A DNA stretch of 64,000 nucleotides from a virus (Duplodnaviria > Heunggongvirae > Uroviricota > Caudoviricetes), in the IMG/VR virus record IMGVR_UViG_3300044991_001838, positions 1 through 64,000 of that record. One strand, 5' to 3'. Positions 15,559 to 32,933 of the stretch are shown in pieces. Every line of letters starts with the position of its first letter. The first letter of the stretch is position 1. A model generated the notes under the pieces. It ran no database searches and had not been told where the DNA came from. It saw nothing but the letters and a program-made list of their open reading frames with translations. The translations under genes and the position numbers were made by a program.

Positions 15559-15586
15559 AAGAAGGGTTAAACACCCTTCTTTTTTG
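15559..15586. terminator. bidirectional terminator between convergent genes
   Basis: A-run, GAAGGGT-loop-ACCCTTC, T-run; overlaps clpP stop. Confidence 0.6.
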
Positions 15587-16247
15587 TTGTAACAACTTCA
15601 TCAATAATCCCGTATTCAAGTGCTTCATCCGCAGTTAACCACAAATCACGAGTAGCATCCAAAGTAACTTGTTCCTCAGTTTTACCACAATAAGAACCTA
15701 ACAAATCAAAAAGAATTTTATTTGTTTTTTCCCATTCCCTCATATTGATACGAGCATCTTGGATATTACCTCCTGCACCACCTGAAGATTGGTGTAACAT
15801 GGTTTTTGAGAATCTCAATGAACTTCTTTTACCTTTAGTTCCAGCCCCCAGCAATACGGACCCCATAGATGCCGCCATACCTGTGTTAATTGTTCTAATA
15901 TCACAAGAAATGTAATCCATAACATCTACCATTGAAAGTCCTGACTTAACACTTCCACCAGGAGAGTCGATATGCATCGTAATGTCCAATTTATCTGATG
16001 AATCTAAGAACATTAACTGAGCTTGGACTATTGTTGACATGTGGTCATTAACAGGTCCAGCAACCCATAAAATTCGGTCTCTCATTAATCTTGAAAAGAT
16101 ATCCATTTGAGTTACTCTCATTTCTCTTTCTTCCAAAATGTATGGAGTCATCGAATTCTCAATTTGAGAATTAAAATTATGTAAATCCAAAGATGGTTTA
16201 CCTAAATGTTTTACATAATAATTTTTAAAATCTTCGCCTATATTCAT
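15567..16247 (-). CDS. clpP: ATP-dependent Clp protease proteolytic subunit ClpP
   Basis: DSPGGSV, catalytic Ser (GMAASMGSVLL), His (MLHQS) and Asp (TRDLWLTADEA) in ClpP order; very close match to the E. coli ClpP remembered. Confidence 0.85.
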   Translation of the reverse strand: MNIGEDFKNYYVKHLGKPSLDLHNFNSQIENSMTPYILEEREMRVTQMDIFSRLMRDRILWVAGPVNDHMSTIVQAQLMFLDSSDKLDITMHIDSPGGSVKSGLSMVDVMDYISCDIRTINTGMAASMGSVLLGAGTKGKRSSLRFSKTMLHQSSGGAGGNIQDARINMREWEKTNKILFDLLGSYCGKTEEQVTLDATRDLWLTADEALEYGIIDEVVTTKKKGV

Positions 16248-17880: not shown

Positions 17881-17954
17881 CGGGGTGTGGACTAAAGGTT
17901 AGTCGCCTGGTTTGGGACCAGGACATCGAGCAGATTCGATTTCTGCCACCCCGA
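17881..17954 (+). tRNA. tRNA-Pro (UGG)
   Basis: Acceptor CGGGGTG/CACCCCG, D-stem GACT/AGTC, anticodon arm CCTGG-TTTGGGA-CCAGG, T-arm GCAGA-TTCGATT-TCTGC; 7-nt variable region. Confidence 0.7.
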
Positions 17955-17960
17955 CATTAT

Positions 17961-18045
17961 TGACATGTTGCCATAGAGGTCGAATGGTCCAGACTGTTAA
18001 TCTGGTGAGTAAAATCCGACGTAGGTTCGAATCCTACCGTGTCAG
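17961..18045 (+). tRNA. atypical tRNA: Asn-type anticodon loop CUGUUAA (GUU) but 15-nt variable region
   Basis: Acceptor TGACATG/CGTGTCA, anticodon arm CCAGA-CTGTTAA-TCTGG, T-arm GTAGG-TTCGAAT-CCTAC; 85 nt; variable segment TGAGTAAAATCCGAC without an obvious stem. Confidence 0.45.
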
Positions 18046-18087
18046 CTTTACTTTTCGAATATTTGTGATAGTTATTATTAACTAATA

Positions 18088-18648
18088 ATGTTAATAATGA
18101 GTAAATACTTCGAAAAAATAATAGAATTAAGAAATCAGGGTAAAACCTATAAAGAAATTTGTAAAGAATTACATTGTGCAATTTCAACAGTATCATATCA
18201 CTGTAAACTCAATAAAATGGGTGGTCATAGTGATAGATTGACAGATGAACAAAAATTAGAATTACAAAAACTTTATGATGAAATTGGTTCTGTTAAAAAA
18301 ATTGCAAAATTAAAAGGACATGCAATTAACACTGTTTTAAAATATGTTGTAACAACAAATAAAAATAAAACAGTTTCAAAAACTGAAGCAGTTATTGAAT
18401 GGAGAAAACGAACAAAACAAAAATTAATTGACTATAAGGGTGGTGAATGTGAATTATGTGGATATAAAAAATGTAACAGAGCTTTACAATTTCATCATCT
18501 CAATCCTGAAGAAAAAGACTTTTCAATTTCAGGAAAAAGTGTTAGTTTTGAAAAACTAAAAGACGAGGTAGACAAATGTATATTAGTATGTTCTAATTGT
18601 CATTCTGAAATACACGACGGTTTAGTTGAATTATTACAAGTGGGGTAG
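18088..18648 (+). CDS. HNH homing endonuclease with N-terminal HTH
   Basis: CELCGY...LQFHHLNPEEK...CILVCSNCHSEIH HNH; inserted between tRNA genes. Confidence 0.75.
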   Translation: MLIMSKYFEKIIELRNQGKTYKEICKELHCAISTVSYHCKLNKMGGHSDRLTDEQKLELQKLYDEIGSVKKIAKLKGHAINTVLKYVVTTNKNKTVSKTEAVIEWRKRTKQKLIDYKGGECELCGYKKCNRALQFHHLNPEEKDFSISGKSVSFEKLKDEVDKCILVCSNCHSEIHDGLVELLQVG

Positions 18649-18719
18649 GTGGAAAATTTCCAATGTTGTGGTATCGTGGATGGAGTAATCCTGAAGCATA
18701 AACAGACAAAAAGAAAGAA

Positions 18720-19208
18720 ATGAAGTTAAAAACATTCTTATTGACTGGATTGTTATTGTTAGGAACATTAACAATCAAAGCACAAGAGAAGCAATTACAA
18801 AGTGAAACAACTATTGAAAATAGTATCACAAGACAAAATTTGTATGAGCAGATAATTAATCACGGAATTAAATTTCCTGATGTGGTATTCGCACAAGCGG
18901 TATTAGAATCAGGTCAATTTACTTCCAAATTGTTCAAATCAGCGAACAATCTATTTGGTATGAGAATACCAAAAAAACGAGAGTCATCCGCAAACGGTCA
19001 AACCAAAAGTGGGTATTCAAGTTATGAAGATTGGGTGTTTAGTGTGTATGATTACTCCTTATGGCAGAATTATATGTTAAAAAACAAGAATGATTTGACA
19101 AAAAAAGAGTACCTTGCGTTACTTGGTAAAATATACGCACAAGACAAAAGATATGTCAGTAGTTTAAAACGAGTAATCGAAGAACATAAGGACATATTAG
19201 TTAACTAA
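18720..19208 (+). CDS. secreted N-acetylglucosaminidase (FlgJ/GH73-like) peptidoglycan hydrolase
   Basis: Signal peptide; AQAVLESGQFTSKLFKSANNLFGM glucosaminidase domain motif. Confidence 0.6.
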   Translation: MKLKTFLLTGLLLLGTLTIKAQEKQLQSETTIENSITRQNLYEQIINHGIKFPDVVFAQAVLESGQFTSKLFKSANNLFGMRIPKKRESSANGQTKSGYSSYEDWVFSVYDYSLWQNYMLKNKNDLTKKEYLALLGKIYAQDKRYVSSLKRVIEEHKDILVN

Positions 19209-19330
19209 AAAGATTGGGTTGAGACTCCCCATAAAAAACAGAAAGACAGAATACGGGAAGTCACTACCCGAGAAACACGGTTCTTTCTCATTCAATTGTT
19301 ATAGGATTGTCACCTTTGAATTGAAATTTT

Positions 19331-19403
19331 GGTCCCGTGGTTGAATGGTTACAATTCCACCCTGTCACGGTGTGAGGTACGGGTTCGAATCCCGTCGGGA
19401 CCG
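19331..19403 (+). tRNA. tRNA-Asp (GUC), CCA encoded
   Basis: Acceptor GGTCCCG/CGGGACC, D-stem GTTG/CAAT, anticodon loop CUGUCAC, T-arm ACGGG-TTCGAAT-CCCGT, followed by genomic CCA at 19404-19406. Confidence 0.75.
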
Positions 19404-19409
19404 CCAAAT

Positions 19410-19481
19410 GCAGATATCGTATAGGGGTTATTACTCCAGACTTCCAATCTGGAGACGACGGTTCGATTCCGTCTATCTGCT
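19410..19481 (+). tRNA. tRNA-Gly (UCC)
   Basis: Acceptor GCAGATA/TATCTGC, anticodon arm CCAGA-CTTCCAA-TCTGG, T-arm GACGG-TTCGATT-CCGTC. Confidence 0.8.
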
Positions 19482-19532
19482 CAAGGGGTGTGTGGGAACC
19501 CAAGAATATGTGATGAGCATATACCCACAAAC

Positions 19533-19605
19533 GCCTCCTTAGCTCAGCAGGTAGAGCGCAACATTTGTAATGTTGATGTCGTTGGTTCGATTCCGACAGG
19601 AGGCT
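19533..19605 (+). tRNA. tRNA-Thr (UGU)
   Basis: Acceptor GCCTCCT/AGGAGGC, D-arm GCTC-AGCAGGTA-GAGC, anticodon arm CAACA-TTTGTAA-TGTTG, T-arm GTTGG-TTCGATT-CCGAC. Confidence 0.85.
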
Positions 19606-19612
19606 CAAATAA

Positions 19613-19687
19613 GGGGTTACATGTTCCAAGGCTTGGCGAGAAACACTTGCAATGTCTCTGAGGTGAGTTCGATTCTCACTAGCTCCA
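19613..19687 (+). tRNA. tRNA-Ala (UGC)-like with non-canonical D-arm
   Basis: Acceptor GGGGTTA/TAGCTCC with G3:U70, anticodon loop CUUGCAA, T-arm GTGAG-TTCGATT-CTCAC; D region (CATGTTCCAAGGCTTGGCGAG) does not form a standard D-stem and position 8 is C. Confidence 0.45.
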
Positions 19688-19700
19688 CAAAAATAAAACT

Positions 19701-20048
19701 ATGGCACATCCAAATTTACATGCAAAATCATCCGCTAAGAAATTTGGTGGAAAACCTGAAGATTATATCCATTTACACGAATGGTTAGATGAAACCAAAT
19801 CTTGGTTTGGTGACTCACTCCACAGAATGTTTAGACATCATAGTGAAGGGATTTTTGAAATGGAAAAAAGATTTGGTACGGAATTCACCAATAGTGATGG
19901 TAAAATAGTTTACACAAGATATGTTGGTGAACAACATGTAAAAGAAGACTGTAATAACTATATCCCATCGGCCAAAGAGTGGGTTAATAACCTTTCCGAG
20001 AATAAACGACCACAATGGATGTTAAGAACATTAAAAATAGATGATTAA
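19701..20048 (+). CDS. hypothetical protein
   Basis: 115-aa ORF immediately after tRNA run. Confidence 0.5.
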   Translation: MAHPNLHAKSSAKKFGGKPEDYIHLHEWLDETKSWFGDSLHRMFRHHSEGIFEMEKRFGTEFTNSDGKIVYTRYVGEQHVKEDCNNYIPSAKEWVNNLSENKRPQWMLRTLKIDD

Positions 20049-20064
20049 AGGATATTTATAGTTT

Positions 20065-20781
20065 ATGAAAGGAATTTTAACACCAGAAGAAAAAAAATAT
20101 TTACGAAGAGTTACCAATTATCTTAATTCATTAGGGATGTATGATGGTAATATTGAGTTTGATATTGATAGTTATTCAGTATTTGACCCCAACGATATTG
20201 ATTGGGATGAAATAACCCATTTTTCAAACAATTATAGAGCGGATATCCCATCAGGATTAATTCCAATACTTCAAAAGATTGTTAACTATGTTGATAATCA
20301 AAACAATTTTGAGCACCTTGATATGGATATGATTAATTACCAAAGAGTTGAGTTTGATATTGATGTAAAAGATAAAAAAATCGTGTTTAGTAAATGGTGG
20401 TCTTTTTATGAAAGAGGTGATGGAAGTTCGATTGAGTTCGATTCTGATGAAGACATTGAAAAATTTAAACGATGGGAAGGAAACGAGTTTTCCGATGTTG
20501 AAATACCAAATGATGGTATTTTAACCGTAACATATAATGGGTCTGGAGATTCAGGATATTTGGAAGATAGATTTGACCAAAATGGTAGTGCGGTACCTGC
20601 GGGAATTGAAGATTGGTGTTACACTCAACTTTCAACAAATTTTGGTGGTTGGGAAAACAATGAAGGGTCTGATGGTCAATTTATATTTGACTTTAATAAT
20701 AAAATTGTTACATTAGACCATACTGACAATATTGAATCAAACGATAGTAATACTTTATATGAAGAAAGTTTTACAGAATAA
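20065..20781 (+). CDS. hypothetical acidic protein
   Basis: 238-aa ORF. Confidence 0.5.
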   Translation: MKGILTPEEKKYLRRVTNYLNSLGMYDGNIEFDIDSYSVFDPNDIDWDEITHFSNNYRADIPSGLIPILQKIVNYVDNQNNFEHLDMDMINYQRVEFDIDVKDKKIVFSKWWSFYERGDGSSIEFDSDEDIEKFKRWEGNEFSDVEIPNDGILTVTYNGSGDSGYLEDRFDQNGSAVPAGIEDWCYTQLSTNFGGWENNEGSDGQFIFDFNNKIVTLDHTDNIESNDSNTLYEESFTE

Positions 20782-20898
20782 GATATATTTATAAAAACAA
20801 TGAGAACAATATTATTACATACATTATTACTTAATAGACAAGGTCTGTTAAGAAGACTTATGCGGTAATTTGTTCAGAGCCATTCTATTTATAGAGAC

Positions 20899-20931
20899 TT
20901 AACCCTGAACTGAAAAGTTTGGGGTTTTTTT
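20899..20931 (+). terminator. terminator-like hairpin
   Basis: AACCCTGAAC...GTTTGGGGTT with internal mismatches then T7. Confidence 0.45.
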
Positions 20932-20953
20932 ATGGTTATATCAAAGATTTTAC

Positions 20954-20961
20954 TATCTTTG
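20954..20961 (+). promoter_or_regulatory. Bacteroidetes -7 element TATCTTTG upstream of tRNA-Leu(UAA)
   Basis: TAnnTTTG 11 nt before tRNA 5' end; same decamer recurs at 22447, 26827, 32926. Confidence 0.4.
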
Positions 20962-20971
20962 TAGAAGAAAT

Positions 20972-21052
20972 ATCGAGGTGGTGAAATGGTAGACACGAGG
21001 GGCTTAAGACTCCTTGCCATAAGGCGTGAGGGTTCGACTCCCTCTCTCGATA
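20972..21052 (+). tRNA. tRNA-Leu (UAA), class II
   Basis: Acceptor ATCGAGG/TCTCGAT, disc A, 3-bp D-stem, anticodon arm AGGGG-CTTAAGA-CTCCT, 12-nt variable arm, T-arm GAGGG-TTCGACT-CCCTC. Confidence 0.7.
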
Positions 21053-21120
21053 CAAAATTTAAAATTATGAAAAAGGTATTTGATAATCTTTGAGGTCTGC
21101 TAAACAACAGACTCAAGATT

Positions 21121-21309
21121 ATGAGTGTGAATACAAACAGAATGAAATTGAAGAAGGCAACTTGTTCAAAAGATTACAGATTGATTTGGTTAAAGTTTGA
21201 ATACCCTTCTTATTGGGATGAGGGTGTTCATTACAGAAAAGGACAATTTTCTCACAAATACAGAGAACATAAAACTTGGAAGTATAACCGAAAAACTCAG
21301 TGGAAGTAA
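21121..21309 (+). CDS. hypothetical basic small protein
   Basis: 62-aa ORF between tRNA genes. Confidence 0.3.
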   Translation: MSVNTNRMKLKKATCSKDYRLIWLKFEYPSYWDEGVHYRKGQFSHKYREHKTWKYNRKTQWK

Positions 21310-21417
21310 AATGTGTTGTTCCTGTGAGATAGGAATGAAATAGTCGGGTGAGATTATAAATTTTGAAAAGATTTATGTCTATATTTGCACAACACGAGGA
21401 GTTCTCAACCTCAAAAT

Positions 21418-21507
21418 AGTTAGGTGGCGGAATTGGTAGACGCTTTAAGGTACTTTATCATTGCTGAAGTTTAAATATCCTCACAGGTTCGAGTCCTGTC
21501 CTGACTA
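21418..21507 (+). tRNA. Leu-type class II tRNA-like gene with aberrant, extended anticodon region
   Basis: 5' half AGTTAGG-TG-GCGGAATTGGTAGACGC and 3' half ACAGG-TTCGAGT-CCTGT-CCTGACT-A match the Leu tRNA frame (E. coli tRNA-Leu has GGTGGCGGAATTGGTAGACGC), but 39 nt between D- and T-arms give no 5-bp stem plus 7-nt loop; the region folds as TTTAA-GGT-ACTT-(11-nt loop)-AAGT-TTAAA. Confidence 0.4.
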
Positions 21508-21646
21508 CTAAATTCAATTAAAGACAAGACCCTGACATATGTTTATGGTGCGTCCCGATGTGTCTAAGCTAGAAGTACAATAGCACAAATCACATTGACA
21601 ACAGTTATCGGAGTGGAAATGGAAGTCCACAATTGAATTTTAAAAT

Positions 21647-21726
21647 AGTCGGGTGGCGGAATTGGATAGACGCGGCCCCGTTGAGGGGTTTAACCGGAAT
21701 TACAGGTTCGAGTCCTGTCCTGACTA
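21647..21726 (+). tRNA. Leu-type tRNA-like gene with 5-nt anticodon loop (probable pseudo- or non-decoding tRNA)
   Basis: Same conserved 5' and 3' halves as 21418-21507; middle GGCCCC-GTTGA-GGGGTT forms a 4-6 bp stem with 5-nt loop. Confidence 0.4.
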
Positions 21727-21944
21727 CGATTGAGATAGAGATACTCAATAGATTTGGCATCGTTACTTAAACAATGATGTAGCTGGTACTCCAAACGGTT
21801 TTACAGAGGGAGTCGTCGGAAAAACGGCAAGAGAACCATCTTGACCTCCGAGTATATGGTTGACTTTTAAGCGGTAAGACGCGATGGGTTTTGAATAGGA
21901 AAACTGTAGATATCTACACCAAAATAATCTCATTGGTGGAAAAT

Positions 21945-22018
21945 GGTTCGGTAGCTCAGCTGGATAGAGCACAAATCTTCTAAATTTGGGGTCATAGGTT
22001 CGAATCCTATCCGAATCA
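21945..22018 (+). tRNA. tRNA-Arg (UCU)
   Basis: Acceptor GGTTCGG/CCGAATC, D-arm GCTC-AGCTGGATA-GAGC, anticodon arm CAAAT-CTTCTAA-ATTTG, T-arm ATAGG-TTCGAAT-CCTAT. Confidence 0.8.
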
Positions 22019-22117
22019 CAATTATCATATCCTCAGGTACCCCTATCGCACAGGGTGGGCTAAGTAAGATGGAATTTCTGTTGGCGAGAACCAGAATGCC
22101 TGTACGATGTGATATAT

Positions 22118-22190
22118 GCCCCGATGGTGGAATGGCAGACACGCTTGTTTTAGATACAAGATTTTGAGAGTTCGAGTCTCTCTTGGGGTA
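22118..22190 (+). tRNA. tRNA with anticodon UAG (Leu, CUN) but class I architecture (5-nt variable loop)
   Basis: Acceptor GCCCCGA/TTGGGGT disc A, D-stem GTGG/ACAC, anticodon arm CTTGT-TTTAGAT-ACAAG, variable ATTTT, T-arm GAGAG-TTCGAGT-CTCTC. Confidence 0.6.
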
Positions 22191-22376
22191 CAAAAAAAAA
22201 TAATATTTGACAAATTGAAGATTTTGACTATCTTTGATATAATTATAGAAACAATGAAAACTACAATACAACATATGGTCTTTAGTAAACAACAAATAGT
22301 TTGTTGGTATGAGCGTATGCTGCTATGTAGTTCGGATGTAATCGTAGGATAATAATATAAATTTATATCATATCAG

Positions 22377-22412
22377 ACCCCGAACTTTTAATTAAGGTTC
22401 GGGGTTTTTTTA
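22377..22412 (+). terminator. rho-independent terminator
   Basis: GACCCCGAAC-loop-GTTCGGGG then T7. Confidence 0.7.
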
Positions 22413-22446
22413 TTCTATAATCTTTTGCTCTTTGAAATATTGATTG

Positions 22447-22454
22447 TATCTTTG
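22447..22454 (+). promoter_or_regulatory. Bacteroidetes -7 element TATCTTTG upstream of tRNA-Glu/Val/Phe run
   Basis: TAnnTTTG 16 nt before tRNA-Glu; follows terminator 22377-22412. Confidence 0.4.
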
Positions 22455-22470
22455 TAAAAGATTTATTTAT

Positions 22471-22542
22471 GGCCCTGTCGACTATCGGTTAGGTCGCCAG
22501 GTTTTCATCCTGGAAAGTCGGGTTCGACTCCCGGCAGGGCTA
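22471..22542 (+). tRNA. tRNA-Glu (UUC)
   Basis: Acceptor GGCCCTG/CAGGGCT, D-stem GACT/GGTC, anticodon arm CCAGG-TTTTCAT-CCTGG, T-arm TCGGG-TTCGACT-CCCGG. Confidence 0.75.
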
Positions 22543-22548
22543 CAATAC

Positions 22549-22620
22549 AGTTCCTTAGCTCAGTGGAAGAGTTCTTGCCTTACATGCAAGCAGTCGTAGG
22601 TTCGAATCCTACAGGAACTA
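22549..22620 (+). tRNA. tRNA-Val (UAC)
   Basis: Acceptor AGTTCCT/AGGAACT, anticodon arm CTTGC-CTTACAT-GCAAG, T-arm GTAGG-TTCGAAT-CCTAC. Confidence 0.75.
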
Positions 22621-22766
22621 CTAAGATAATGGTTCTAACCATTCAATGGAATGTCGACAATTCCGAATGGAGCAATAGTTCATCACCCTTTCTGCCGAGG
22701 CCTCATAAAACTCAGGAAAGCAGTTAAGATTGGAGCGAGACGGGTACTCCATCATTATCTTTATTT

Positions 22767-22839
22767 GGTAACGTAGCTCAGTCGGTAGAGCACTTGTTTG
22801 AAGAACAAGGTGTCGTCAGTTCGATTCTGACCGTTACCA
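22767..22839 (+). tRNA. tRNA-Phe (GAA)
   Basis: Acceptor GGTAACG/CGTTACC, D-arm GCTC-AGTCGGTA-GAGC, anticodon arm CTTGT-TTGAAGA-ACAAG, T-arm GTCAG-TTCGATT-CTGAC. Confidence 0.85.
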
Positions 22840-23243
22840 CGGAGTCCCGAATTAACGGGAAACCCCCACTCCCATATGGCAGCCAGTCCATTAACCTGGT
22901 GAAGTGGGGTTGTTAGTCGACTGTGTAATGAGGGAAGGTCCCAAACCCCCAAGACCAATAGTCACAGACACTTGTGTTGACTATGGAGTTGTAAGGTTGC
23001 CTTGTGCGGGTTCGAGTCCCGTGTCGACTACACGAGTCGAGTAGTATACGACTAGTTTGCTCCCGAACGATGAGAAGTGGTTTTACAACCATGGGGACCT
23101 GAGCCGATTACTTGAGTCTAAGTCGGTTGGTTAGTGTACCATTAACAGGAGTAAGTTAACACACAAGTTCTAACCCCTCACGTAAGTGGGTTGCCGCTGA
23201 AATTCGGTATTGGGGACAGTCAGAAATGATTGAACGAAAAAAA
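22840..23243 (+). ncRNA. candidate structured stable RNA(s) within tRNA island (tRNA-like 3' terminus)
   Basis: About 400 nt without ORFs, markedly more GC-rich than flanks; ends with T-arm GCGGG-TTCGAGT-CCCGT plus acceptor GTCGACT-A whose complement AGTCGAC lies about 110 nt upstream; multiple local hairpins. Confidence 0.35.
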
Positions 23244-23317
23244 GACCTCTTAGCTCAGTTGGCTAGAGCACTTCACTTTTAATGAAGGAGTCCCGAGTTC
23301 GAGTCTCGGAGGGGTCA
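23244..23317 (+). tRNA. tRNA-Lys (UUU)
   Basis: Acceptor GACCTCT/AGGGGTC, D-arm GCTC-AGTTGGCTA-GAGC, anticodon arm CTTCA-CTTTTAA-TGAAG, T-arm CCGAG-TTCGAGT-CTCGG. Confidence 0.85.
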
Positions 23318-23333
23318 CAAAAAAATAGAAATT

Positions 23334-23576
23334 ATGATACCAAAAAATGAAATGGTTGAAGGTTGGTACAATGGATTTTGTAGGAACAACCACATGGCAT
23401 ATTGGGACGGAGAAAAGTTCCAATACATCCGATATAAGTTCGGGTTCCAATTGGATACCATAGAACATTTTGAGGATGTTAAAGATAAAGGGTTTGACGG
23501 GTTTGTACCTGTTGAAAGAATTGAAAGAATTCCTATCGATAAACAATGGGAAGTTAAAAAAGAAATAGGATATTAA
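23334..23576 (+). CDS. hypothetical protein
   Basis: 80-aa ORF. Confidence 0.45.
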   Translation: MIPKNEMVEGWYNGFCRNNHMAYWDGEKFQYIRYKFGFQLDTIEHFEDVKDKGFDGFVPVERIERIPIDKQWEVKKEIGY

Positions 23577-23577
23577 A

Positions 23578-23856
23578 ATGAAAGAGATTGATTATTTCCG
23601 AAAAATATTAAAACATCAAAACCCAATTTATTATAGTGGGGTTAGAATTACCACTGAAGTTAAAAACATTTATGGGGAACCTGGAATTAATAACATTGTT
23701 GTTGGAAAATTGAGAAAAATTATAATCCAATTTCCTGGAAATTCAGGTAATCTTTATTCCAACATTAGTTCTTATATTAGGTTTGTTTGGGGAACTAATG
23801 ATGTAATTGCGGAATTTGATTTTGATGGAACTAATTATTTCAAATTTACAGTATAA
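23578..23856 (+). CDS. hypothetical protein
   Basis: 92-aa ORF. Confidence 0.45.
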   Translation: MKEIDYFRKILKHQNPIYYSGVRITTEVKNIYGEPGINNIVVGKLRKIIIQFPGNSGNLYSNISSYIRFVWGTNDVIAEFDFDGTNYFKFTV

Positions 23857-23870
23857 AAAAATAAAAAGAT

Positions 23871-24470
23871 ATGATAGATAATTTAGAGATAATAAAACCG
23901 TTGTTAAACTTTGAAGAAAAGGGTGATTTCTATATGTTGTATGTGTTTAAACGTAAGAAAGACCAACCTGAAAATGAAAGAGATAATCATCAATCGGTTA
24001 GAACAATTAAAACATATTGTATTGATTCAATTGACCATTTGGAAAGAAGGTACGATGAGGTAAAACAACTTTGTGAAATGTTTAAAGCAAGAGCTTATAT
24101 TCATATTCAAAAACAAAATCATAAAGATGTTTCTTTGGATATGTTGTCAAATTTGGCGGAAAGAATTAAGAATGGGGTTCAAAACCAAAAAGGGTTATTT
24201 GATTCAGTTGTTGGTCAAATAAAGACTAAAGAAAAAAGATGGATTGTTGATATTGATACTACTGACCCTGATTTTTTATATGAAGTCGCCGATTTTATTA
24301 AAGACCTTAGACCAATTGGATTTAAGGTTGAAAAAGTAATACCTACCAAAAATGGTAGACATTTAATTACATCTCGATTTGATGTCAAATCATTTAGTGA
24401 TAGATATCCTGAAATTGATATCCAAAAGAAGAACCCAACATTATTATATTACCCAAATAGTTTAGATTAA
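23871..24470 (+). CDS. hypothetical protein
   Basis: 199-aa ORF. Confidence 0.5.
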   Translation: MIDNLEIIKPLLNFEEKGDFYMLYVFKRKKDQPENERDNHQSVRTIKTYCIDSIDHLERRYDEVKQLCEMFKARAYIHIQKQNHKDVSLDMLSNLAERIKNGVQNQKGLFDSVVGQIKTKEKRWIVDIDTTDPDFLYEVADFIKDLRPIGFKVEKVIPTKNGRHLITSRFDVKSFSDRYPEIDIQKKNPTLLYYPNSLD

Positions 24471-24472
24471 TT

Positions 24473-24630
24473 ATGGCAACATTAGAAACACAATATAAAA
24501 ACTTTCTCTTGGAGAATCCAAATTCAAAGTTTACCTTTGACGAGTGGAAAGAATGGTTAGGAAAACAAATTGAGGAAGCCCTTAAGGATATTAAAATTAA
24601 AGAATATGGAAAAGAAATTAGGGAAAATTG
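24473..24630 (+). CDS. hypothetical small protein
   Basis: 52-aa ORF (MATLETQYKNFLLENPNSKF...) below the ORF-track cutoff, read directly from sequence. Confidence 0.3.
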
Positions 24631-24941
24631 AGTCGGTAAGTTTTGGTCTTGGTGGATATCAAGGAGCAATGTTAGGTCTTCACGTCACATTAAGTGGTGG
24701 AAGTTGGGGTGTTGGTGATTCAAGAGCCAATTGGGATTCAGAACAAATAAAATGGACGGAACACACCCAATGGTCTGAAGAAGATAGGGATGGATGGTAT
24801 TCTGAGATTATGAGATATGTTTCGACTTTACTGAAGGAAGCTAAGGTTGACTCTGTGGATAAATTAAAAGGGAAACCGGTTGAGGTTACCTTTGAAGGAA
24901 ACACATTAAAAGAATGGAGAATACTAACTGAAGTTCTTTAA
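24606..24941 (+). CDS. hypothetical Trp-rich protein
   Basis: ORF 24570..24941; start moved to MEKKLGKIE. Confidence 0.45.
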   Translation: MEKKLGKIESVSFGLGGYQGAMLGLHVTLSGGSWGVGDSRANWDSEQIKWTEHTQWSEEDRDGWYSEIMRYVSTLLKEAKVDSVDKLKGKPVEVTFEGNTLKEWRILTEVL

Positions 24942-24950
24942 ATTAGATAG

Positions 24951-25022
24951 GGTCGGTTGGCCGAGTGGCTTAGGCGGTAGTCTGCAAAACTATTCACACA
25001 GGTTCAAATCCTGTACCGACCT
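24951..25022 (+). tRNA. tRNA-Cys (GCA)
   Basis: Acceptor GGTCGGT/ACCGACC, anticodon arm GTAGT-CTGCAAA-ACTAT, T-arm ACAGG-TTCAAAT-CCTGT. Confidence 0.8.
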
Positions 25023-25028
25023 CAAAAA

Positions 25029-25073
25029 TCTTAAATTTGAGCAGTAAATACTCTTAAATTTGAGCAGTAAATA
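25029..25073 (+). repeat. perfect tandem duplication of 22-23 nt between tRNA-Cys and tRNA-Trp
   Basis: TCTTAAATTTGAGCAGTAAATA twice (25029-25050, 25052-25073). Confidence 0.8.
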
Positions 25074-25076
25074 AAT

Positions 25077-25147
25077 ACGTTTGTAGTGCAACGGTAGCAT
25101 CACGGTCTCCAACACCGTTGGTGGGGGTTCGAATCCCTCCAAGCGTG
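25077..25147 (+). tRNA. tRNA-Trp (CCA)
   Basis: Acceptor ACGTTTG/CAAGCGT, D-arm GTGC-AACGGTA-GCAT, anticodon arm ACGGT-CTCCAAC-ACCGT, T-arm GGGGG-TTCGAAT-CCCTC. Confidence 0.75.
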
Positions 25148-25449
25148 CAAAAGGTTGATTGGGGAATGATTGTACTAATAGTTCGAGAGTGAATGCCGGC
25201 TAGTACAATCGGAGTTGGGAGGTATTCACCTAAGTAACGCTAATCGTAAAAACAGATGTCCACGCAACCATCTTCTGTTTTCCTAAAAGAATTAAGACAG
25301 ACCTATAACTTACGTCAGTGGTAGTGTAGGGGTGAGGTTCGGAGTAATCAACCAAACCAAGAGACCGCCGAGGGTAAACACGGGTATGATGCCCGTCTAG
25401 TCCCCTAAGACTGAAATATCGGAGAATCCTCATTGTCTGTTTTATAATT
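25148..25449 (+). ncRNA. candidate structured stable RNA within tRNA island
   Basis: GC-rich ORF-free 300 nt; 10-bp stem GATTGTACTA/TAGTACAATC (25168-25212), hairpin ACAGATG...CATCTTCTGTTTT with U-tract, hairpin ACGGGTATGATGCCCGT. Confidence 0.35.
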
Positions 25450-25530
25450 GGGAGTGTTGAGCAATTGGTCGCTTAGCAGACTGTAAATCTGTGGTCTACG
25501 ACATTGGGGGTTCGAATCCCTCCACTCCCA
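25450..25530 (+). tRNA. tRNA-Tyr (GUA), class II
   Basis: Acceptor GGGAGTG/CACTCCC, anticodon arm GCAGA-CTGTAAA-TCTGT, 13-nt variable arm, T-arm GGGGG-TTCGAAT-CCCTC. Confidence 0.8.
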
Positions 25531-25679
25531 CAAACAAGGAAACAACCCCTGAGTTGGTAAGCGCTTATCCGGACTCAAGAGAAGTAAAGTTATCAGATGG
25601 GTGCGTAACGCCTTGGACTACTATTATTGAATGATACGAGCCTGCAAAGTTCGAAAGGAGTCAGGTAGTAGTCAATTTT

Positions 25680-25753
25680 GGACCTTTAACTCAGTCGGTT
25701 AGAGTAGCTCGCTCATAACGAGAAGGTCCCAGGTTCGAGTCCTGGATGGTCCA
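25680..25753 (+). tRNA. tRNA-Met or Ile2 (CAU), elongator-type
   Basis: Acceptor GGACCTT/ATGGTCC (one mismatch), D-arm ACTC-AGTCGGTTAGAGT, anticodon loop CUCAUAA, T-arm CCAGG-TTCGAGT-CCTGG; 1:72 paired so not initiator. Confidence 0.65.
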
Positions 25754-25759
25754 CAGTAT

Positions 25760-25830
25760 TGCCCGATGGTGTAATGGTAACACAACTGTTTTTGGTACAG
25801 TCGTTCCAAGTTCGAGTCTTGGTCGGGTAA
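25760..25830 (+). tRNA. tRNA-Gln (UUG)
   Basis: Acceptor TGCCCGA/TCGGGTA, D-stem GTGT/ACAC, anticodon arm ACTGT-TTTTGGT-ACAGT, T-arm CCAAG-TTCGAGT-CTTGG. Confidence 0.75.
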
Positions 25831-25912
25831 CTAAATAAATAAAGTATGTGGTTTTTAATTTTGTGGATTGTTTTGATGATAATTGTTAAATGGGACAATA
25901 ATCGGTAATTAG

Positions 25913-25985
25913 GGTTTTATGGTGTAACGGATTAGCACACGAATCTACGGAATTCGGAGTTTAGGTTCGAATCCTAATAGAACCT
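25913..25985 (+). tRNA. tRNA-Arg (ACG)
   Basis: Acceptor GGTTTTA/TAGAACC, D-stem GTGT/GCAC, anticodon arm CGAAT-CTACGGA-ATTCG, T-arm TTAGG-TTCGAAT-CCTAA. Confidence 0.75.
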
Positions 25986-26066
25986 CTAAACTGCGTGACT
26001 TAGAGGAAAAGAACTATCTCTCATAAGGATGGTCAATTGGGTTCGAAACCCAAACACGCAACATAT

Positions 26067-26140
26067 GGTGGCTATAGCTCAGTTGGTAGAGCGCTTGGTT
26101 GTGGTCCAAGTTGTCACGGGTTCGATTCCCGTTAGTCACC
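26067..26140 (+). tRNA. tRNA-His (GUG) with encoded G-1
   Basis: Extra 5' G pairing with discriminator C73 (His identity), acceptor GTGGCTA/TAGTCAC, anticodon arm CTTGG-TTGTGGT-CCAAG, T-arm ACGGG-TTCGATT-CCCGT. Confidence 0.85.
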
Positions 26141-26175
26141 CTAATATTTTTCATCTATACCGACTATTTATTAGT

Positions 26176-26754
26176 ATGGAAAAGAAATTAACATTAACAA
26201 AGGAACAATTATTTAAAGTGATGCACTTGAATGAGGCGGAAAACAAACCAGGTTTAACAAAGTCACCTAAATTATACTCGTTATCAGATAAGACAATTAA
26301 AATCTTAACTGATAGAATCAAAGACGAATATACTGCACATTATTATTACAGAGCGGCAACTAACTGGTGTGCGGATATGAACTACAAAAAAGCGGCAGCG
26401 TTTTTTGAAAATGAGGCAAAAGATGAATTAGGTCATTCTGAGATTTTACAACAATATATGACCGATTTCAATATTATCCCTGAAATCCCATCAGCAAAAA
26501 TTAGTCATACTTTCAATAGTTTGGAAGAAATTATTAATGGAGCTTATGAAATGGAATTGGCATTAATGAAAGCATATAACAAAGATTCACAAACAGTATT
26601 TTCTGATGATATTACAACATTTGATGTTTTAACTAAATTTAGAAAAATTCAAAAAGGTGCCGTAGTTGAGTATAACGACTTAATTAATGCATTGAGTTTA
26701 ATTGATAGTAAAGATAAGTTCCAAGTATTATACTTTGAACAAACATACTTTTAA
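26176..26754 (+). CDS. ferritin-like (non-haem ferritin) protein
   Basis: AATNWCADMNYKKAAAFFENEAKDELGHSEILQQYMTDFNIIP parallels FtnA [42 protein letters not shown]; tracked ORF start 26029 lies inside tRNA-His, so start reset to MEKKL at 26176. Confidence 0.65.
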   Translation: MEKKLTLTKEQLFKVMHLNEAENKPGLTKSPKLYSLSDKTIKILTDRIKDEYTAHYYYRAATNWCADMNYKKAAAFFENEAKDELGHSEILQQYMTDFNIIPEIPSAKISHTFNSLEEIINGAYEMELALMKAYNKDSQTVFSDDITTFDVLTKFRKIQKGAVVEYNDLINALSLIDSKDKFQVLYFEQTYF

Positions 26755-26776
26755 TATAGAAGAGATTTAAATACTA

Positions 26777-26812
26777 AATCCCTCTGATTAAAAGTCAGGG
26801 GGATTTTTTTTA
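26777..26812 (+). terminator. rho-independent terminator after ferritin gene
   Basis: ATCCCTCTGA-TTAAAAG-TCAGGGGGAT then T8. Confidence 0.7.
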
Positions 26813-26826
26813 TGGGATAAATTAAC

Positions 26827-26834
26827 TATCTTTG
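26827..26834 (+). promoter_or_regulatory. Bacteroidetes -7 element TATCTTTG upstream of tRNA-Ile
   Basis: TAnnTTTG 12 nt before tRNA 5' end; follows terminator. Confidence 0.4.
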
Positions 26835-26846
26835 TAAAAATAATAA

Positions 26847-26920
26847 TGGAATATAACTCAGTTGGTTAGAGTGTCATCCTGATACGGTGAAAGTCGATGG
26901 TTCGAGTCCATCTATTCCAA
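26847..26920 (+). tRNA. tRNA-Ile (GAU)
   Basis: Acceptor TGGAATA/TATTCCA, D-arm ACTC-AGTTGGTTAGAGT, anticodon arm TCATC-CTGATAC-GGTGA, T-arm GATGG-TTCGAGT-CCATC. Confidence 0.75.
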
Positions 26921-26921
26921 C

Positions 26922-27266
26922 ATGGAAACAACAGAAATAATAGAAAAAAAGAAAAAGGGGCATAAAGCCCAATTCAAAAAGATTGTAAAAGAATATAAAA
27001 GTGCATCAACTAAAGAAGTTTGGGAAGGTGTAAGGGATAATTTTACTTTTGGGTTCTTAGGGGCCACTTTAGTAGTTTTTATTGCAACACGTACAGATAT
27101 TGCGGTTTTAATGGGTTATTTAATATATTACTTTTTTATGGGTAAAATTGTAAATAGACCAAAATACGTAACTGATTTAGGTAAATTAATTGTATTCCCA
27201 ATACCATCCGCATTGGGCGCTTTTACAGGATATAAATTGTCATATATCTTACTACACCTAATATAA
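26922..27266 (+). CDS. membrane protein
   Basis: Two or three hydrophobic helices; possible holin-like. Confidence 0.45.
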   Translation: METTEIIEKKKKGHKAQFKKIVKEYKSASTKEVWEGVRDNFTFGFLGATLVVFIATRTDIAVLMGYLIYYFFMGKIVNRPKYVTDLGKLIVFPIPSALGAFTGYKLSYILLHLI

Positions 27267-27271
27267 TATAA

Positions 27272-27356
27272 GGAAGGTTGGCAGAGTGGTAATGCAGCGG
27301 TTTGCTAAACCGTACATCGATAAAATGATGCGAGAGTTCGAGTCTCTCATTTTCCG
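27272..27356 (+). tRNA. tRNA-Ser (GCU), class II
   Basis: Acceptor GGAAGGT/ATTTTCC disc G, anticodon arm GCGGT-TTGCTAA-ACCGT, 17-nt variable arm, T-arm GAGAG-TTCGAGT-CTCTC. Confidence 0.75.
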
Positions 27357-27440
27357 CAGAAAAAATATGTAAGAAAAATTGACATATCAGTATAGTTCTT
27401 GTATATTTATAATCTAATAATAAATAAAACAAAAAAAATT

Positions 27441-30072: not shown

Positions 30073-30264
30073 TTATATTTTATCAAAGTGTTTATTGTTT
30101 AATTCCTCAATAGAAATTTGATTATTTTTCCATTCTTTCCAAACTTCAAAATCTTTTAATTCTGTTAAAGTATCTTCATGAACCAATAGAAATCCTTCAG
30201 GTGCAATACCTTTTAATTTACCCATTGGTCCTCTTTCCTCAATAATTTTTTTTATATCAATCAT
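30073..30264 (-). CDS. hypothetical protein
   Basis: 63-aa ORF coupled to upstream gene. Confidence 0.4.
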   Translation of the reverse strand: MIDIKKIIEERGPMGKLKGIAPEGFLLVHEDTLTELKDFEVWKEWKNNQISIEELNNKHFDKI

Positions 30265-30958
30265 TATTAGTTAAATATTCCAATAATTTTTCTTTAACAC
30301 CAGATTGTTTGATTCCTTCATTTTCTCTTGGTGTATGAACAAAGTTAGATAATCCCCATACTTGTTCATAACCATAAGAATCTTTCCCTCCTAACTGTAA
30401 ATCGTCAATACAAGCCCAATGTGTGATTTCGGGATGGTCTGTTAGATATTGTCTAACCTCAATACATCTTTGTTGTTCATGCATTGTACTTCGTCTCCAT
30501 ACAAACTCATCAGGTTTATCACAACCGATGTATCGTTTGGTGAATGCTATTGGTGCCTTTGAGATTCCTTTTGACAGGTAATATTCACCAATTTCTTCCA
30601 ATGTTGCGTGTAATCTCCAATCAGAAGAAACAACAAGTTCAGCACCTGTTAATTCTAAGACATCATTTAATACTTTAACGGCTTTCTTATCAAAATCATC
30701 AAATCGTACTTCAACGGGTGCTACAGTGTCGCTAGTTGCTTCAGGATTAAGTTTCTTATACTTCTTCCATTTTTTGGCTCGACCACCCCAATTATTGGAG
30801 AGACAGATTACCCCGTCATTATCCAAAAATATTACCTTATTTGTTTTCATTTTATTTAATAATTTAATTGATTCAAATCTAATAGCGTCAGTTAATTCTT
30901 GGCATTCCCAGCACCAATCATTATTATCTATCCCAATATGCTTATAACACTTCAACAT
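30257..30958 (-). CDS. HAD-like hydrolase (nucleotidase/phosphatase-like) with N-terminal Cys pair
   Basis: VIFLDNDGVI DxDGV motif I. Confidence 0.5.
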   Translation of the reverse strand: MLKCYKHIGIDNNDWCWECQELTDAIRFESIKLLNKMKTNKVIFLDNDGVICLSNNWGGRAKKWKKYKKLNPEATSDTVAPVEVRFDDFDKKAVKVLNDVLELTGAELVVSSDWRLHATLEEIGEYYLSKGISKAPIAFTKRYIGCDKPDEFVWRRSTMHEQQRCIEVRQYLTDHPEITHWACIDDLQLGGKDSYGYEQVWGLSNFVHTPRENEGIKQSGVKEKLLEYLTNND

Positions 30959-31032
30959 AATACAAAGATACGATATTTATAAGAAAAACAAAAAGTCTTA
31001 CGACATAAATTTTAAATATCTGTAAATGGAGG

Positions 31033-31771: not shown

Positions 31772-32917
31772 ATGGGTAAAATTAAATTAAGTGAGTCTGA
31801 ATTAATTCAGGTTATTAAAAGAATTGTTAAAGAATCTGATGATGAGTCAAATGGACCAAACGACAATTTTGTTATTGCCTTAAGAAATTATGCTAAAGGT
31901 AAAATCACTAAAGATGATTTATATGACATTGATGATTCCATATACTATATTGAACCCAAAACACCTTTAGGTCAAACAATGTTAACTATAGAGTTTAAAA
32001 ATGAAGAAGAACTTTTAAATTTACTTGAGATGAGTGATGATGACATATGGTTTATGAGAGCATTAAATGGATATGACGGTTATGACTTTATGGACTCATA
32101 TCAAATAGAGCAAGATTTTAAAGATGGGTATGGTGTGTACGGTGAGTTAGATGAAGAAAATGTAGATAAACTTAAAGACCTCTCTTCAATTCTTTTATCG
32201 GGTAAAGAATTTGATTTAACTAATGAAGATTTTAAAATTGCATTATCTCAAATTTTATTAGATGTGTTTCCAAAAGAAATTGACTACATCCTTGGTGATT
32301 TTGAAATGGAAAAAGAAAGTGAAATGAATGCTGTTGCCAATAAAGTAATTAAAGAAGAATTTGATGATGTTTTATTAAGTGTTGGAGCAAACATTAATAG
32401 TGGATTTGATAGGATTGATATAAAATTGTCGGATTTGTATGCTGCTGCTTTACAATCAAATTTATACAATGGTGATGCCAAAGAATTAGTTGCTAGTGTA
32501 CTTAAAAGGGCTAGTGATAATAACGGTGGAGGTGGTCAATTTGGTGGGTGGTATGAAAACAGTTATGAATATCAAGACCCTGAGTATTTTGATTCAAAAT
32601 CTTTCAATAACTATGTGGGTAGACAATTTGATGAAATGTTAGAAAGTTTGGAGTCAAACAGTGATGAGATTAATGGTGGAATAAAAGAATATTTAGATTT
32701 TAGAACTCGTATAACTTCTAAATTCAAATTAAATAGTTGGTACGACTTACCTAAAGACAAAAAATACAGATTTCAGATTAAAGAATTTGATAGAAATGAT
32801 ATGAAAATCATTGTTGAATTACAAACACCTCTTGGATTTAAAAAAGTTAAATTAAGTGAGGAAAATTTTAATCATTTATTATATCAACCTTCATTATTTA
32901 ATTTGGAAGAAATCTAA
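31772..32917 (+). CDS. hypothetical acidic protein
   Basis: 381-aa ORF. Confidence 0.5.
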   Translation: MGKIKLSESELIQVIKRIVKESDDESNGPNDNFVIALRNYAKGKITKDDLYDIDDSIYYIEPKTPLGQTMLTIEFKNEEELLNLLEMSDDDIWFMRALNGYDGYDFMDSYQIEQDFKDGYGVYGELDEENVDKLKDLSSILLSGKEFDLTNEDFKIALSQILLDVFPKEIDYILGDFEMEKESEMNAVANKVIKEEFDDVLLSVGANINSGFDRIDIKLSDLYAAALQSNLYNGDAKELVASVLKRASDNNGGGGQFGGWYENSYEYQDPEYFDSKSFNNYVGRQFDEMLESLESNSDEINGGIKEYLDFRTRITSKFKLNSWYDLPKDKKYRFQIKEFDRNDMKIIVELQTPLGFKKVKLSEENFNHLLYQPSLFNLEEI

Positions 32918-32933
32918 ATTTTTATTATCTTTG
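32902..32933 (+). promoter_or_regulatory. Bacteroidetes-type promoter (-33 TTTG, -7 TATCTTTG) for M20 peptidase gene
   Basis: TTTG 32902-32905 and TATCTTTG 32926-32933, 20-nt spacing, 4 nt before ATG 32938. Confidence 0.45.

Follow-up and report, generated by a model that had tools for sequence, protein, structure and literature searches.

Leucine tRNAs that lack the long variable arm, termed type I and recognized by a variable loop of 4–5 nt, have precedents in animal mitochondria and in a single tRNA of Streptomyces. In Streptomyces coelicolor, a single leucyl-tRNA synthetase (LeuRS) charges the type I tRNALeu(CAA) together with the type II species (Fan et al. 2019, PMC6614811), and what matters in the 5-nt loop of the type I tRNA is its length, not its sequence (PMC6614811). 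For Escherichia coli LeuRS the determinants are A73, A14, A15:U48, G18G19 and A20a, the anticodon and the long arm are both dispensable, and tRNALeu variants without the variable arm stay active (PMC9976931). The variable loop of another isotype, tRNATyr, is cut by Septu and retron-Eco7, and the tRNATyr of phage T5 resists by means of a different variable loop (PMC13096335).

Here we describe a phage gene that is a type I tRNALeu of this kind. It lies at 22118-22190 (+ strand) of a 64,000-nt stretch of Caudoviricetes DNA (IMG/VR record IMGVR_UViG_3300044991_001838, positions 1 to 64,000; hereafter the window) and specifies a 73-nt cloverleaf tRNA with anticodon UAG, the 5-nt variable loop AUUUU and A73. 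It resembles the S. coelicolor tRNALeu(CAA) in its 5-nt variable loop, A73, Leu-type D arm and coexistence with type II Leu tRNAs, but differs in having a UAG anticodon and in being encoded by a phage, one with low GC content and a probable Bacteroidota host. The S. coelicolor enzyme, ScoLeuRS, has special features, so its mechanism of recognition may not transfer to the phage tRNA. Canonical class II tRNALeu(UAG) shares with the phage gene the acceptor stem, D arm, T arm, A73, identity set and anticodon (25 of 26 nt of the 5′ half in the copies of phage contigs L108 and L049), whereas AUUUU replaces the 11–17-nt variable stem-loop and A37 stands in place of G37.

Work attributed to Su et al. 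2011 is said to have found that the yeast mitochondrial tRNAThr(UAG) reassigns CUN codons to Thr; that tRNA is derived from tRNAHis and has an 8-nt anticodon loop. The phage gene is like it in combining a class I shape with a UAG anticodon, and unlike it in its Leu body, its 7-nt loop and the placement of CUN codons at Leu positions. With animal mitochondrial type I tRNALeu the phage gene shares the short variable loop and the identity elements A73 and A14 (PMC9976931); the mitochondrial tRNA is structurally relaxed and has a dedicated mitochondrial LeuRS, whereas the elbow of the phage tRNA is canonical throughout (G18G19 and the T loop UUCGAGU). The T5 tRNATyr is likewise a phage-encoded member of a class II family whose variable region departs from the host form (PMC13096335), but it is specific for Tyr, its arm is altered and not deleted, and its resistance has been demonstrated by experiment.

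A tRNA-Leu(UAG) gene with a five-nucleotide variable loop

ARAGORN called a tRNA-Leu(tag) at 22118-22191, a span that includes one base past the discriminator, so that the gene proper is 22118-22190. Over this interval the Rfam model RF00005 aligned end to end (model positions 1-71 of 71), scoring 56.3 bits where the gathering threshold is 29 (E = 3.7e-12 in a search of the local 131 bases only), and the minimum-free-energy structure computed with ViennaRNA was the identical cloverleaf. The gene also recurs in 12 related contigs, described below.

The acceptor stem, formed by GCCCCGA (22118-22124) and UUGGGGU (22183-22189), contains the wobbles G1.U72 and G6.U67, and its 5′ strand is followed by U8 and G9. 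The D arm (22127-22142) is of the Leu type, with a 3-bp stem GUG/CAC, a 10-nt loop GAAUGGCAGA, unpaired G13 and A22, and A14, A15, G18G19 and A20a all present; G26 follows it. The anticodon stem-loop CUUGU-UUUAGAU-ACAAG (22144-22160) has a 7-nt loop with U33 and places the anticodon UAG at 22151-22153. The variable loop AUUUU (A44-U48; 22161-22165) occupies 5 nt where class II Leu tRNAs have an arm of 11–17 nt, and its last base, U48, pairs with A15 and does not vary within the family. The T arm GAGAG-UUCGAGU-CUCUC (22166-22182) is common to the class II tRNA-Leu(UAG) of many phages, and the discriminator A73 (22190) is also a family invariant. CCA is not encoded, the sequence directly 3′ of A73 being CAAAAA. 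All of these elements are on the + strand.

A sequence-only reading of this DNA had described a class I-type gene of 73 nt with a 5-nt variable loop, anticodon UAG and A73, and ARAGORN, Rfam and the free-energy fold all agree with that description. Its further statement that the arms are canonical holds for the cloverleaf, which is well formed, but not for the D stem, which has 3 bp and not 4 (as in Leu tRNAs), nor for the acceptor stem with its two G.U pairs. We re-inspected the registration of the anticodon loop and found it correct; the agreement of two programs and the free-energy fold rules out a mis-registered loop.

Relationship to class II leucine tRNAs

We compared the 26-nt 5′ half of the gene (acceptor 5′ strand plus D arm), a part absent from every search pattern, with those of 1254 unique tRNAs predicted in the phage loci retrieved. 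Among these, 56 of the 60 nearest 5′ halves belonged to Leu tRNAs. The closest class II genes, the 84-nt Leu(UAG) of phage contigs L108 and L049, differ at 1 of the 26 nt and have the same D arm, T arm and, in all but one base, acceptor stem as 22118-22190. Their variable region is the 13-nt UGYCGAAAGGCGU, against AUUUU in the window gene, and the anticodon arm differs as well. Because these class II genes otherwise match, we read the window gene as a Leu tRNA in which a loop of class I size replaces the variable arm; as judged from the aligned bases, tRNA-Leu(UAG) at 22118-22190 is shown to be homologous to class II tRNA-Leu(UAG) except in the variable region. The 5′ end of phage tRNA-Gln superficially resembles that of tRNA-Leu(UAG). 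An origin from class I tRNA-Gln by anticodon change was rejected, the nearest neighbours including Gln in 4 of 60 cases and the D loop being of the Leu type.

The D arm is also nearly identical to that of the window's own class II tRNA-Leu(UAA), both having the Leu-type loop AAU(U)GGNAGA. This companion gene, called by ARAGORN at 20972-21052 (+) and equipped with a 13-nt variable arm, shares the cluster with tRNA-Leu(UAG), so that both structural types of Leu tRNA occur in one phage.

The E. coli LeuRS identity set is present in 22118-22190, namely A14, the A15:U48 Levitt pair, G18G19, A20a and A73. The variable stem-loop of more than 10 nt that marks class II tRNALeu is replaced by a variable region of 5 nt, which places the gene in type I, and the other testable hallmarks of a bacterial tRNALeu are all found: A73, the core and elbow set, a Leu anticodon (NAG or YAA) in a 7-nt U33 loop and relatedness of the body. 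An unusual Leu isoacceptor, one of two options that had been put forward for this gene, is thereby well supported, with a Leu body (56 of 60 neighbours) and E. coli-type identity nucleotides that are both present and invariant in the family.

The phage, its tRNA cluster and its probable host

The gene belongs to a tRNA cluster at 17881-27357 (+) that comprises 22 ARAGORN calls and one tRNA-like gene detected by Rfam only. The phage has a GC content of ~32%, and its TerL is at most 30% identical to that of any cultured phage, which leaves it with no close cultured relative; a megablast search of the region against 50,697 phage records returned no match. We counted 17 occurrences of the Bacteroidota-type promoter pattern TTTG-N17-23-TAnnTTTG, where shuffles gave 6.8 +/- 2.7, a 2.5-fold enrichment (0 of 100 shuffles reach 17), and TATCTTTG stands directly upstream of several tRNAs and ORFs. 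Examples of such sites are 20954-20961, 22206-22236, 22424-22454, 26827-26834, 30963-30992 and 32902-32933. The nearest cellular look-alikes of tRNA-Leu(UAG) are found in Flavobacteriia and relatives. The promoter-pattern enrichment and the resemblance of the tRNA to Bacteroidota copies together make Bacteroidota the probable phylum of the host.

The 98-nt spacer between tRNA-Arg(UCU) and tRNA-Leu(UAG) (22020-22117, +) is 99-100% identical in the 12 relatives, the downstream DNA being 94-99% identical. Its core, GGUACCC...GGGCUAAGUAAGAU..AAUU..UGUUG..AGAAUGCC, recurs in 20 IMG/VR contigs, and its outer stem covaries (CAGG/CCUG, UCGG/CCGA, UAAG/CUUA and UCAAG/CUUGA). No Rfam family matched this spacer, which is a candidate small RNA of phage tRNA clusters.

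Upstream in the same cluster, two tRNA-like genes at 21418-21507 and 21647-21727 (+) have Leu bodies, with one T arm and acceptor 3′ strand common to the two, and abnormal anticodon regions. One of the pair is the Rfam-only gene (37.5 bits, 90 nt), and the other is called 'Gln(ttg)' by ARAGORN and has G33 and an 11-nt variable region. Both fall within a segment of ~0.5 kb that is absent from the close relative L125, and they may represent pseudogenes, decoys or some other kind of element. The opposite departure is found in tRNA-Asn(GUU) (17961-18046, +; Rfam, 46.2 bits), an isotype that normally belongs to class I: its variable region reaches 15 nt, its D stem, oddly, has 5 bp, and the gene measures 86 nt. 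At the same place L125 has an ordinary 73-nt tRNA-Asn.

The thymidylate synthase (ThyA; 647-2071, −) has 474 aa, against 264-316 aa in solved homologues, with three insertions at about residues 150-238, 288-320 and 385-430. A ClpP protease (15567-16247, −) and a ClpC-like ATPase with two AAA domains (34487-36499, −) are both encoded; some 150 residues found at the N terminus of cellular ClpC are missing from the ClpC-like protein, of which metagenomes contain close homologues (88-100% identity) in great abundance.

Type I tRNA-Leu in related contigs, other phages and bacteria

Twelve related contigs carry the tRNA-Leu(UAG) gene (3 IMG/VR and 9 JGI metagenome records, some of them one contig present in both collections). 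Outside the anticodon loop, the sequence is unchanged in 10 of the 12; the loop itself is UUUAGAU (U32, A37, U38) in the window against CUUAGGA (C32, G37, A38) in the 12 relatives. The window copy is without G37, the usual m1G37 site of CUN readers, and this could affect decoding fidelity. We considered A37 as a trait specific to type I and discarded the idea, A37 being equally common in class II phage Leu(UAG). A distant lineage (L126/L130) shows compensatory changes in the acceptor and anticodon stems and has the variable loop AUAUU.

A scan of IMG/VR for a UAG anticodon with the identical T arm at any distance downstream gave at least 120 contigs. Among the matches listed, the length of the variable region in unique Leu tRNAs was bimodal, being either 5 nt or at least 11 nt: 28 UAG Leu tRNAs had exactly 5 nt against ~72 with at least 11 nt, and about a quarter of the Leu(UAG) genes with the identical T arm were arm-less. 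The same matches included 5-nt forms for the anticodons CAA (8), UAA (7) and AAG (1), A73 was found in 57 of their 58 short-loop Leu tRNAs, and the variable loop was exactly 5 nt in 44 short-loop Leu sequences.

We aligned 38 short-loop Leu tRNAs and found 98.6% of stem cells paired, against 70% in column shuffles and 38–48% with slid partner columns, and double-sided (compensatory) changes in 18 of 20 pairs. Invariant in all 38 were A14, A15, G18, G19, the A after position 20, U33, A35, U48, the T-loop invariants and A73, and the 1:72 pair was G-C in 26 and G.U in 12. Judged by this pattern of substitution, the type I Leu tRNA family consists of functional genes under purifying selection in phages and bacteria.

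Cultured phages also carry such genes, all annotated as plain tRNA-Leu, with the UAG form present among phages of Vibrio, Aeromonas, Cronobacter and E. coli K-12. The carriers include Aeromonas phage BUCT695, Vibrio phage 1.081.O, Xanthomonas phage X1 and the Cronobacter phages S13 and LPCS28, and Vibrio phage vB_ValS_X1 has type I tRNA-Leu for both UAG and UAA. The T5-like E. coli K-12 phage TrudiRoth (L258) has a type I tRNA-Leu(UAG) with an AUUUU variable loop (MZ501109, 78677-78753), which sits awkwardly with the report of E. coli LeuRS charging type II tRNALeu only. We found no account of a phage type I tRNALeu in the literature searched, where most subscription journals fell outside reach.

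Our scan of bacteria, with one genome per species, yielded loci L138-L257. Many Actinomycetota (Amycolatopsis, L141; Saccharothrix; Nocardioides; Ilumatobacteraceae, L142) have a lone chromosomal type I tRNA-Leu(UAG). The type I tRNA-Leu of Bacteroidota (Flavobacterium, Fluviicola, Tenacibaculum and Aquimarina) lies inside multi-tRNA arrays, as it also does in a few Proteobacteria, and the arrays that bear it often include duplicated tRNAs and tRNA-Ile(UAU). Type I Leu(UAG) and Leu(UAA) are among the 13 tRNAs of the Aquimarina array (L166), which lies between genes for an RF-1-domain protein and an SPFH protein; where we looked for prophage genes on either side of two Bacteroidota tRNA arrays, the sequence encoded an RF-1 domain protein, TPR and SPFH proteins and unknowns. 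The Bacteroidota copies match the window gene in G1.U72, the missing CCA, an AAUGG D loop and an AUUUU or UUUUU variable loop. The sequence-only reading took bacterial Leu tRNAs to be class II, a premise that overreaches in view of the type I forms in S. coelicolor (PMC6614811), Actinomycetota, Bacteroidota and phages. Type I tRNALeu is far wider spread than the literature suggests, its range taking in two bacterial phyla, phages and tRNA arrays of mobile appearance.

Predicted function

The gene is, very probably, a functional CUN Leu isoacceptor of rare type I architecture, charged by the host LeuRS without a variable arm. It would be transcribed together with the neighbouring tRNAs, and since CCA is not encoded, the host enzyme would add it. 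Leucylation by the host LeuRS would proceed via A73 and the elbow and core elements A14, A15:U48, G18G19 and A20a, which an E. coli-type LeuRS uses in place of the variable arm or the anticodon; loss of the arm would be tolerated because bacterial LeuRS does not need it. U34 would read CUA and CUG, and probably CUU if it is modified or superwobbling occurs, CUU being the commonest CUN codon in the window. The tRNA, as the only CUN decoder encoded in the window, would supply CUN decoding during infection, and the arm loss may also shield it from cross-recognition by SerRS or from host nucleases whose cleavage site in class II tRNAs is the variable arm. The S. coelicolor type I tRNALeu(CAA) was not a substrate of E. 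coli LeuRS (PMC6614811), so that acceptance depends on both the enzyme and the tRNA and is not to be taken for granted in any particular host.

A possible counter-defence role and changes in anticodon arms

The arm loss could itself be adaptive, the Leu tRNA escaping nucleases or other factors that target the class II variable arm, in which case the gene would serve counter-defence and not supplement codon usage. Septu, retron-Eco7 and the resistant T5 tRNATyr set a precedent by which deletion of the Leu arm could also be defence evasion, and escape from anticodon nucleases has been put forward for phage tRNAs (PMC10264068). Phages and accessory tRNA arrays, moreover, frequently carry type I Leu tRNAs.

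The cluster offers a further parallel. Three of its tRNAs differ from their counterparts in L125 only, or nearly only (0–2 changes elsewhere), in the anticodon stem-loop, which has 10 changes in tRNA-Arg(UCU) (21945-22019), 3 in tRNA-Leu(UAG) (22118-22190) and 4 in tRNA-Lys(UUU) (23244-23318), those in the stems being compensatory. The 11 other tRNAs compared have no anticodon stem-loop change, and 8 of them are identical throughout. This distribution suggests targeted diversification or swapping of anticodon arms, and it fits the idea of phage tRNAs diversifying to escape anticodon nucleases (PMC10264068). The phage also encodes an Rnl1-family RNA ligase (PF09511; 3907-4989, −) and, at 30257-30958 (−), a protein whose HAD domain (PF18143) is the one found in 'Swiss Army Knife' RNA-repair proteins; with these it appears equipped for tRNA repair, which would suit a phage engaged in counter-defence.

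We nevertheless regard counter-defence as an unlikely explanation of the arm loss, because no reported nuclease targeting the tRNALeu variable arm was found, because many Actinomycetota have a single-copy chromosomal type I tRNALeu, for which such a role is improbable, and because the phage retains a class II tRNA-Leu(UAA) along with class II Tyr and Ser tRNAs. The loss is perhaps neutral, with a LeuRS that ignores the arm. The broader proposition, that phages and mobile tRNA arrays have repeatedly deleted the Leu arm (for UAG, UAA and CAA) and so obtained spares that LeuRS can charge but that are out of reach of defence nucleases, or of other factors that recognize class II tRNAs by the long arm, is doubtful to the same degree. 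If true, it would provide a structural counter-defence in parallel with the anticodon-loop changes in the same cluster.

The improbable alternative of a decaying gene

It is very improbable that the gene is a Leu tRNA put out of action by the deletion of the arm and now decaying as a pseudogene. The two degenerate Leu-bodied tRNA-like genes nearby, at 21418-21507 and 21647-21727, would suit such a history, as would the three anticodon-loop changes of the window copy relative to its relatives. However, the stems pair perfectly, no universal tRNA invariant is missing, and the sequence outside the anticodon loop is the one left unchanged in 10 of 12 relatives. Distant phages and bacterial chromosomes maintain this architecture through many compensatory changes, and a loop of exactly 5 nt in 44 independent sequences corresponds to the class I core length, not to a random deletion size.

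CUN codons in phage proteins

The larger ORFs of the window contain 236 CUN codons (179 CUU, 41 CUA, 9 CUC and 7 CUG) and 790 UUR codons. We aligned the ClpC-like ATPase (34487-36499, −) with 150 diverse homologues at 45-55% identity, drawn from a library clustered at 50%. Close phage relatives (88-100% identity) were left out because, being translated with the identical code, they are useless for a codon test. At the 14 CUN codons, 46.5% of homologue residues were Leu, followed by I, M and V; at UUR codons Leu made up 54.9% across the 150 homologues, with an I/M/V tail as for CUN. Individual CUU positions were strongly Leu (93% at 214, 99% at 493 and 70% at 644), and the CUA position 613 was 61% Leu. 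All 8 aligned CUN codons of ThyA correspond to L, I, V or F residues of two solved structures, among them conserved leucines of the motifs GFPLLTTK, ELLWF and LPPCH. The test comprised 22 aligned CUN codons, 5 of them CUA and 0 CUG, a size at which rare or partial misreading may escape notice.

CUN codons at positions conserved for a non-Leu residue, the mark of a codon reassignment, were not found in the ClpC-like protein or in ThyA. The second option of the sequence-only reading, a tRNA recharged by another synthetase with recoding of CUA/CUG, is not supported, because the CUN codons of both proteins align with Leu or hydrophobic positions in homologues (46.5% against 54.9% Leu in the ClpC-like protein; L/I/V/F in ThyA), and we rejected CUN recoding on the strength of these Leu and Leu-like positions. 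As far as these alignments reach, a change of genetic code is not indicated and CUN codons continue to specify Leu in phage proteins.

Charging with a non-Leu amino acid, which would reassign or blur CUN as the yeast mitochondrial tRNAThr(UAG) does, is very improbable: the class I shape with a Leu anticodon is the general pattern of known sense-codon reassignments, but here the CUN codons align to Leu or Leu-like residues to the same degree as UUR, those of ThyA fall on strictly conserved leucines, the body is of the Leu type and 1 nt from class II Leu tRNAs, the tRNA is without the G3:U70 of Ala and without the long arm and G73 of Ser, A35 and G36 mismatch the anticodon-reading synthetases that use A73, and the anticodon loop has 7 nt against 8 nt in the yeast case.

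Implications

The long variable arm is in textbooks a fixed trait of bacterial Leu tRNAs, and the published bacterial exception, that of Streptomyces, is described as rare. Arm-less Leu tRNAs are common in phage tRNA clusters and are present in bacterial tRNA arrays and in E. coli K-12 phages. With the gene taken as a CUN Leu isoacceptor charged by the host LeuRS, its predicted function would be ordinary; the slight surprise to tRNA specialists would lie in the spread of the type and in its occurrence in coliphages. TrudiRoth provides an easy experimental system, and the coliphage type I Leu genes make charging directly testable. Arm-less genes make it practicable to test the way in which bacterial LeuRS manages when the variable arm is absent, and they give a concrete hypothesis for phage–host tRNA conflict.
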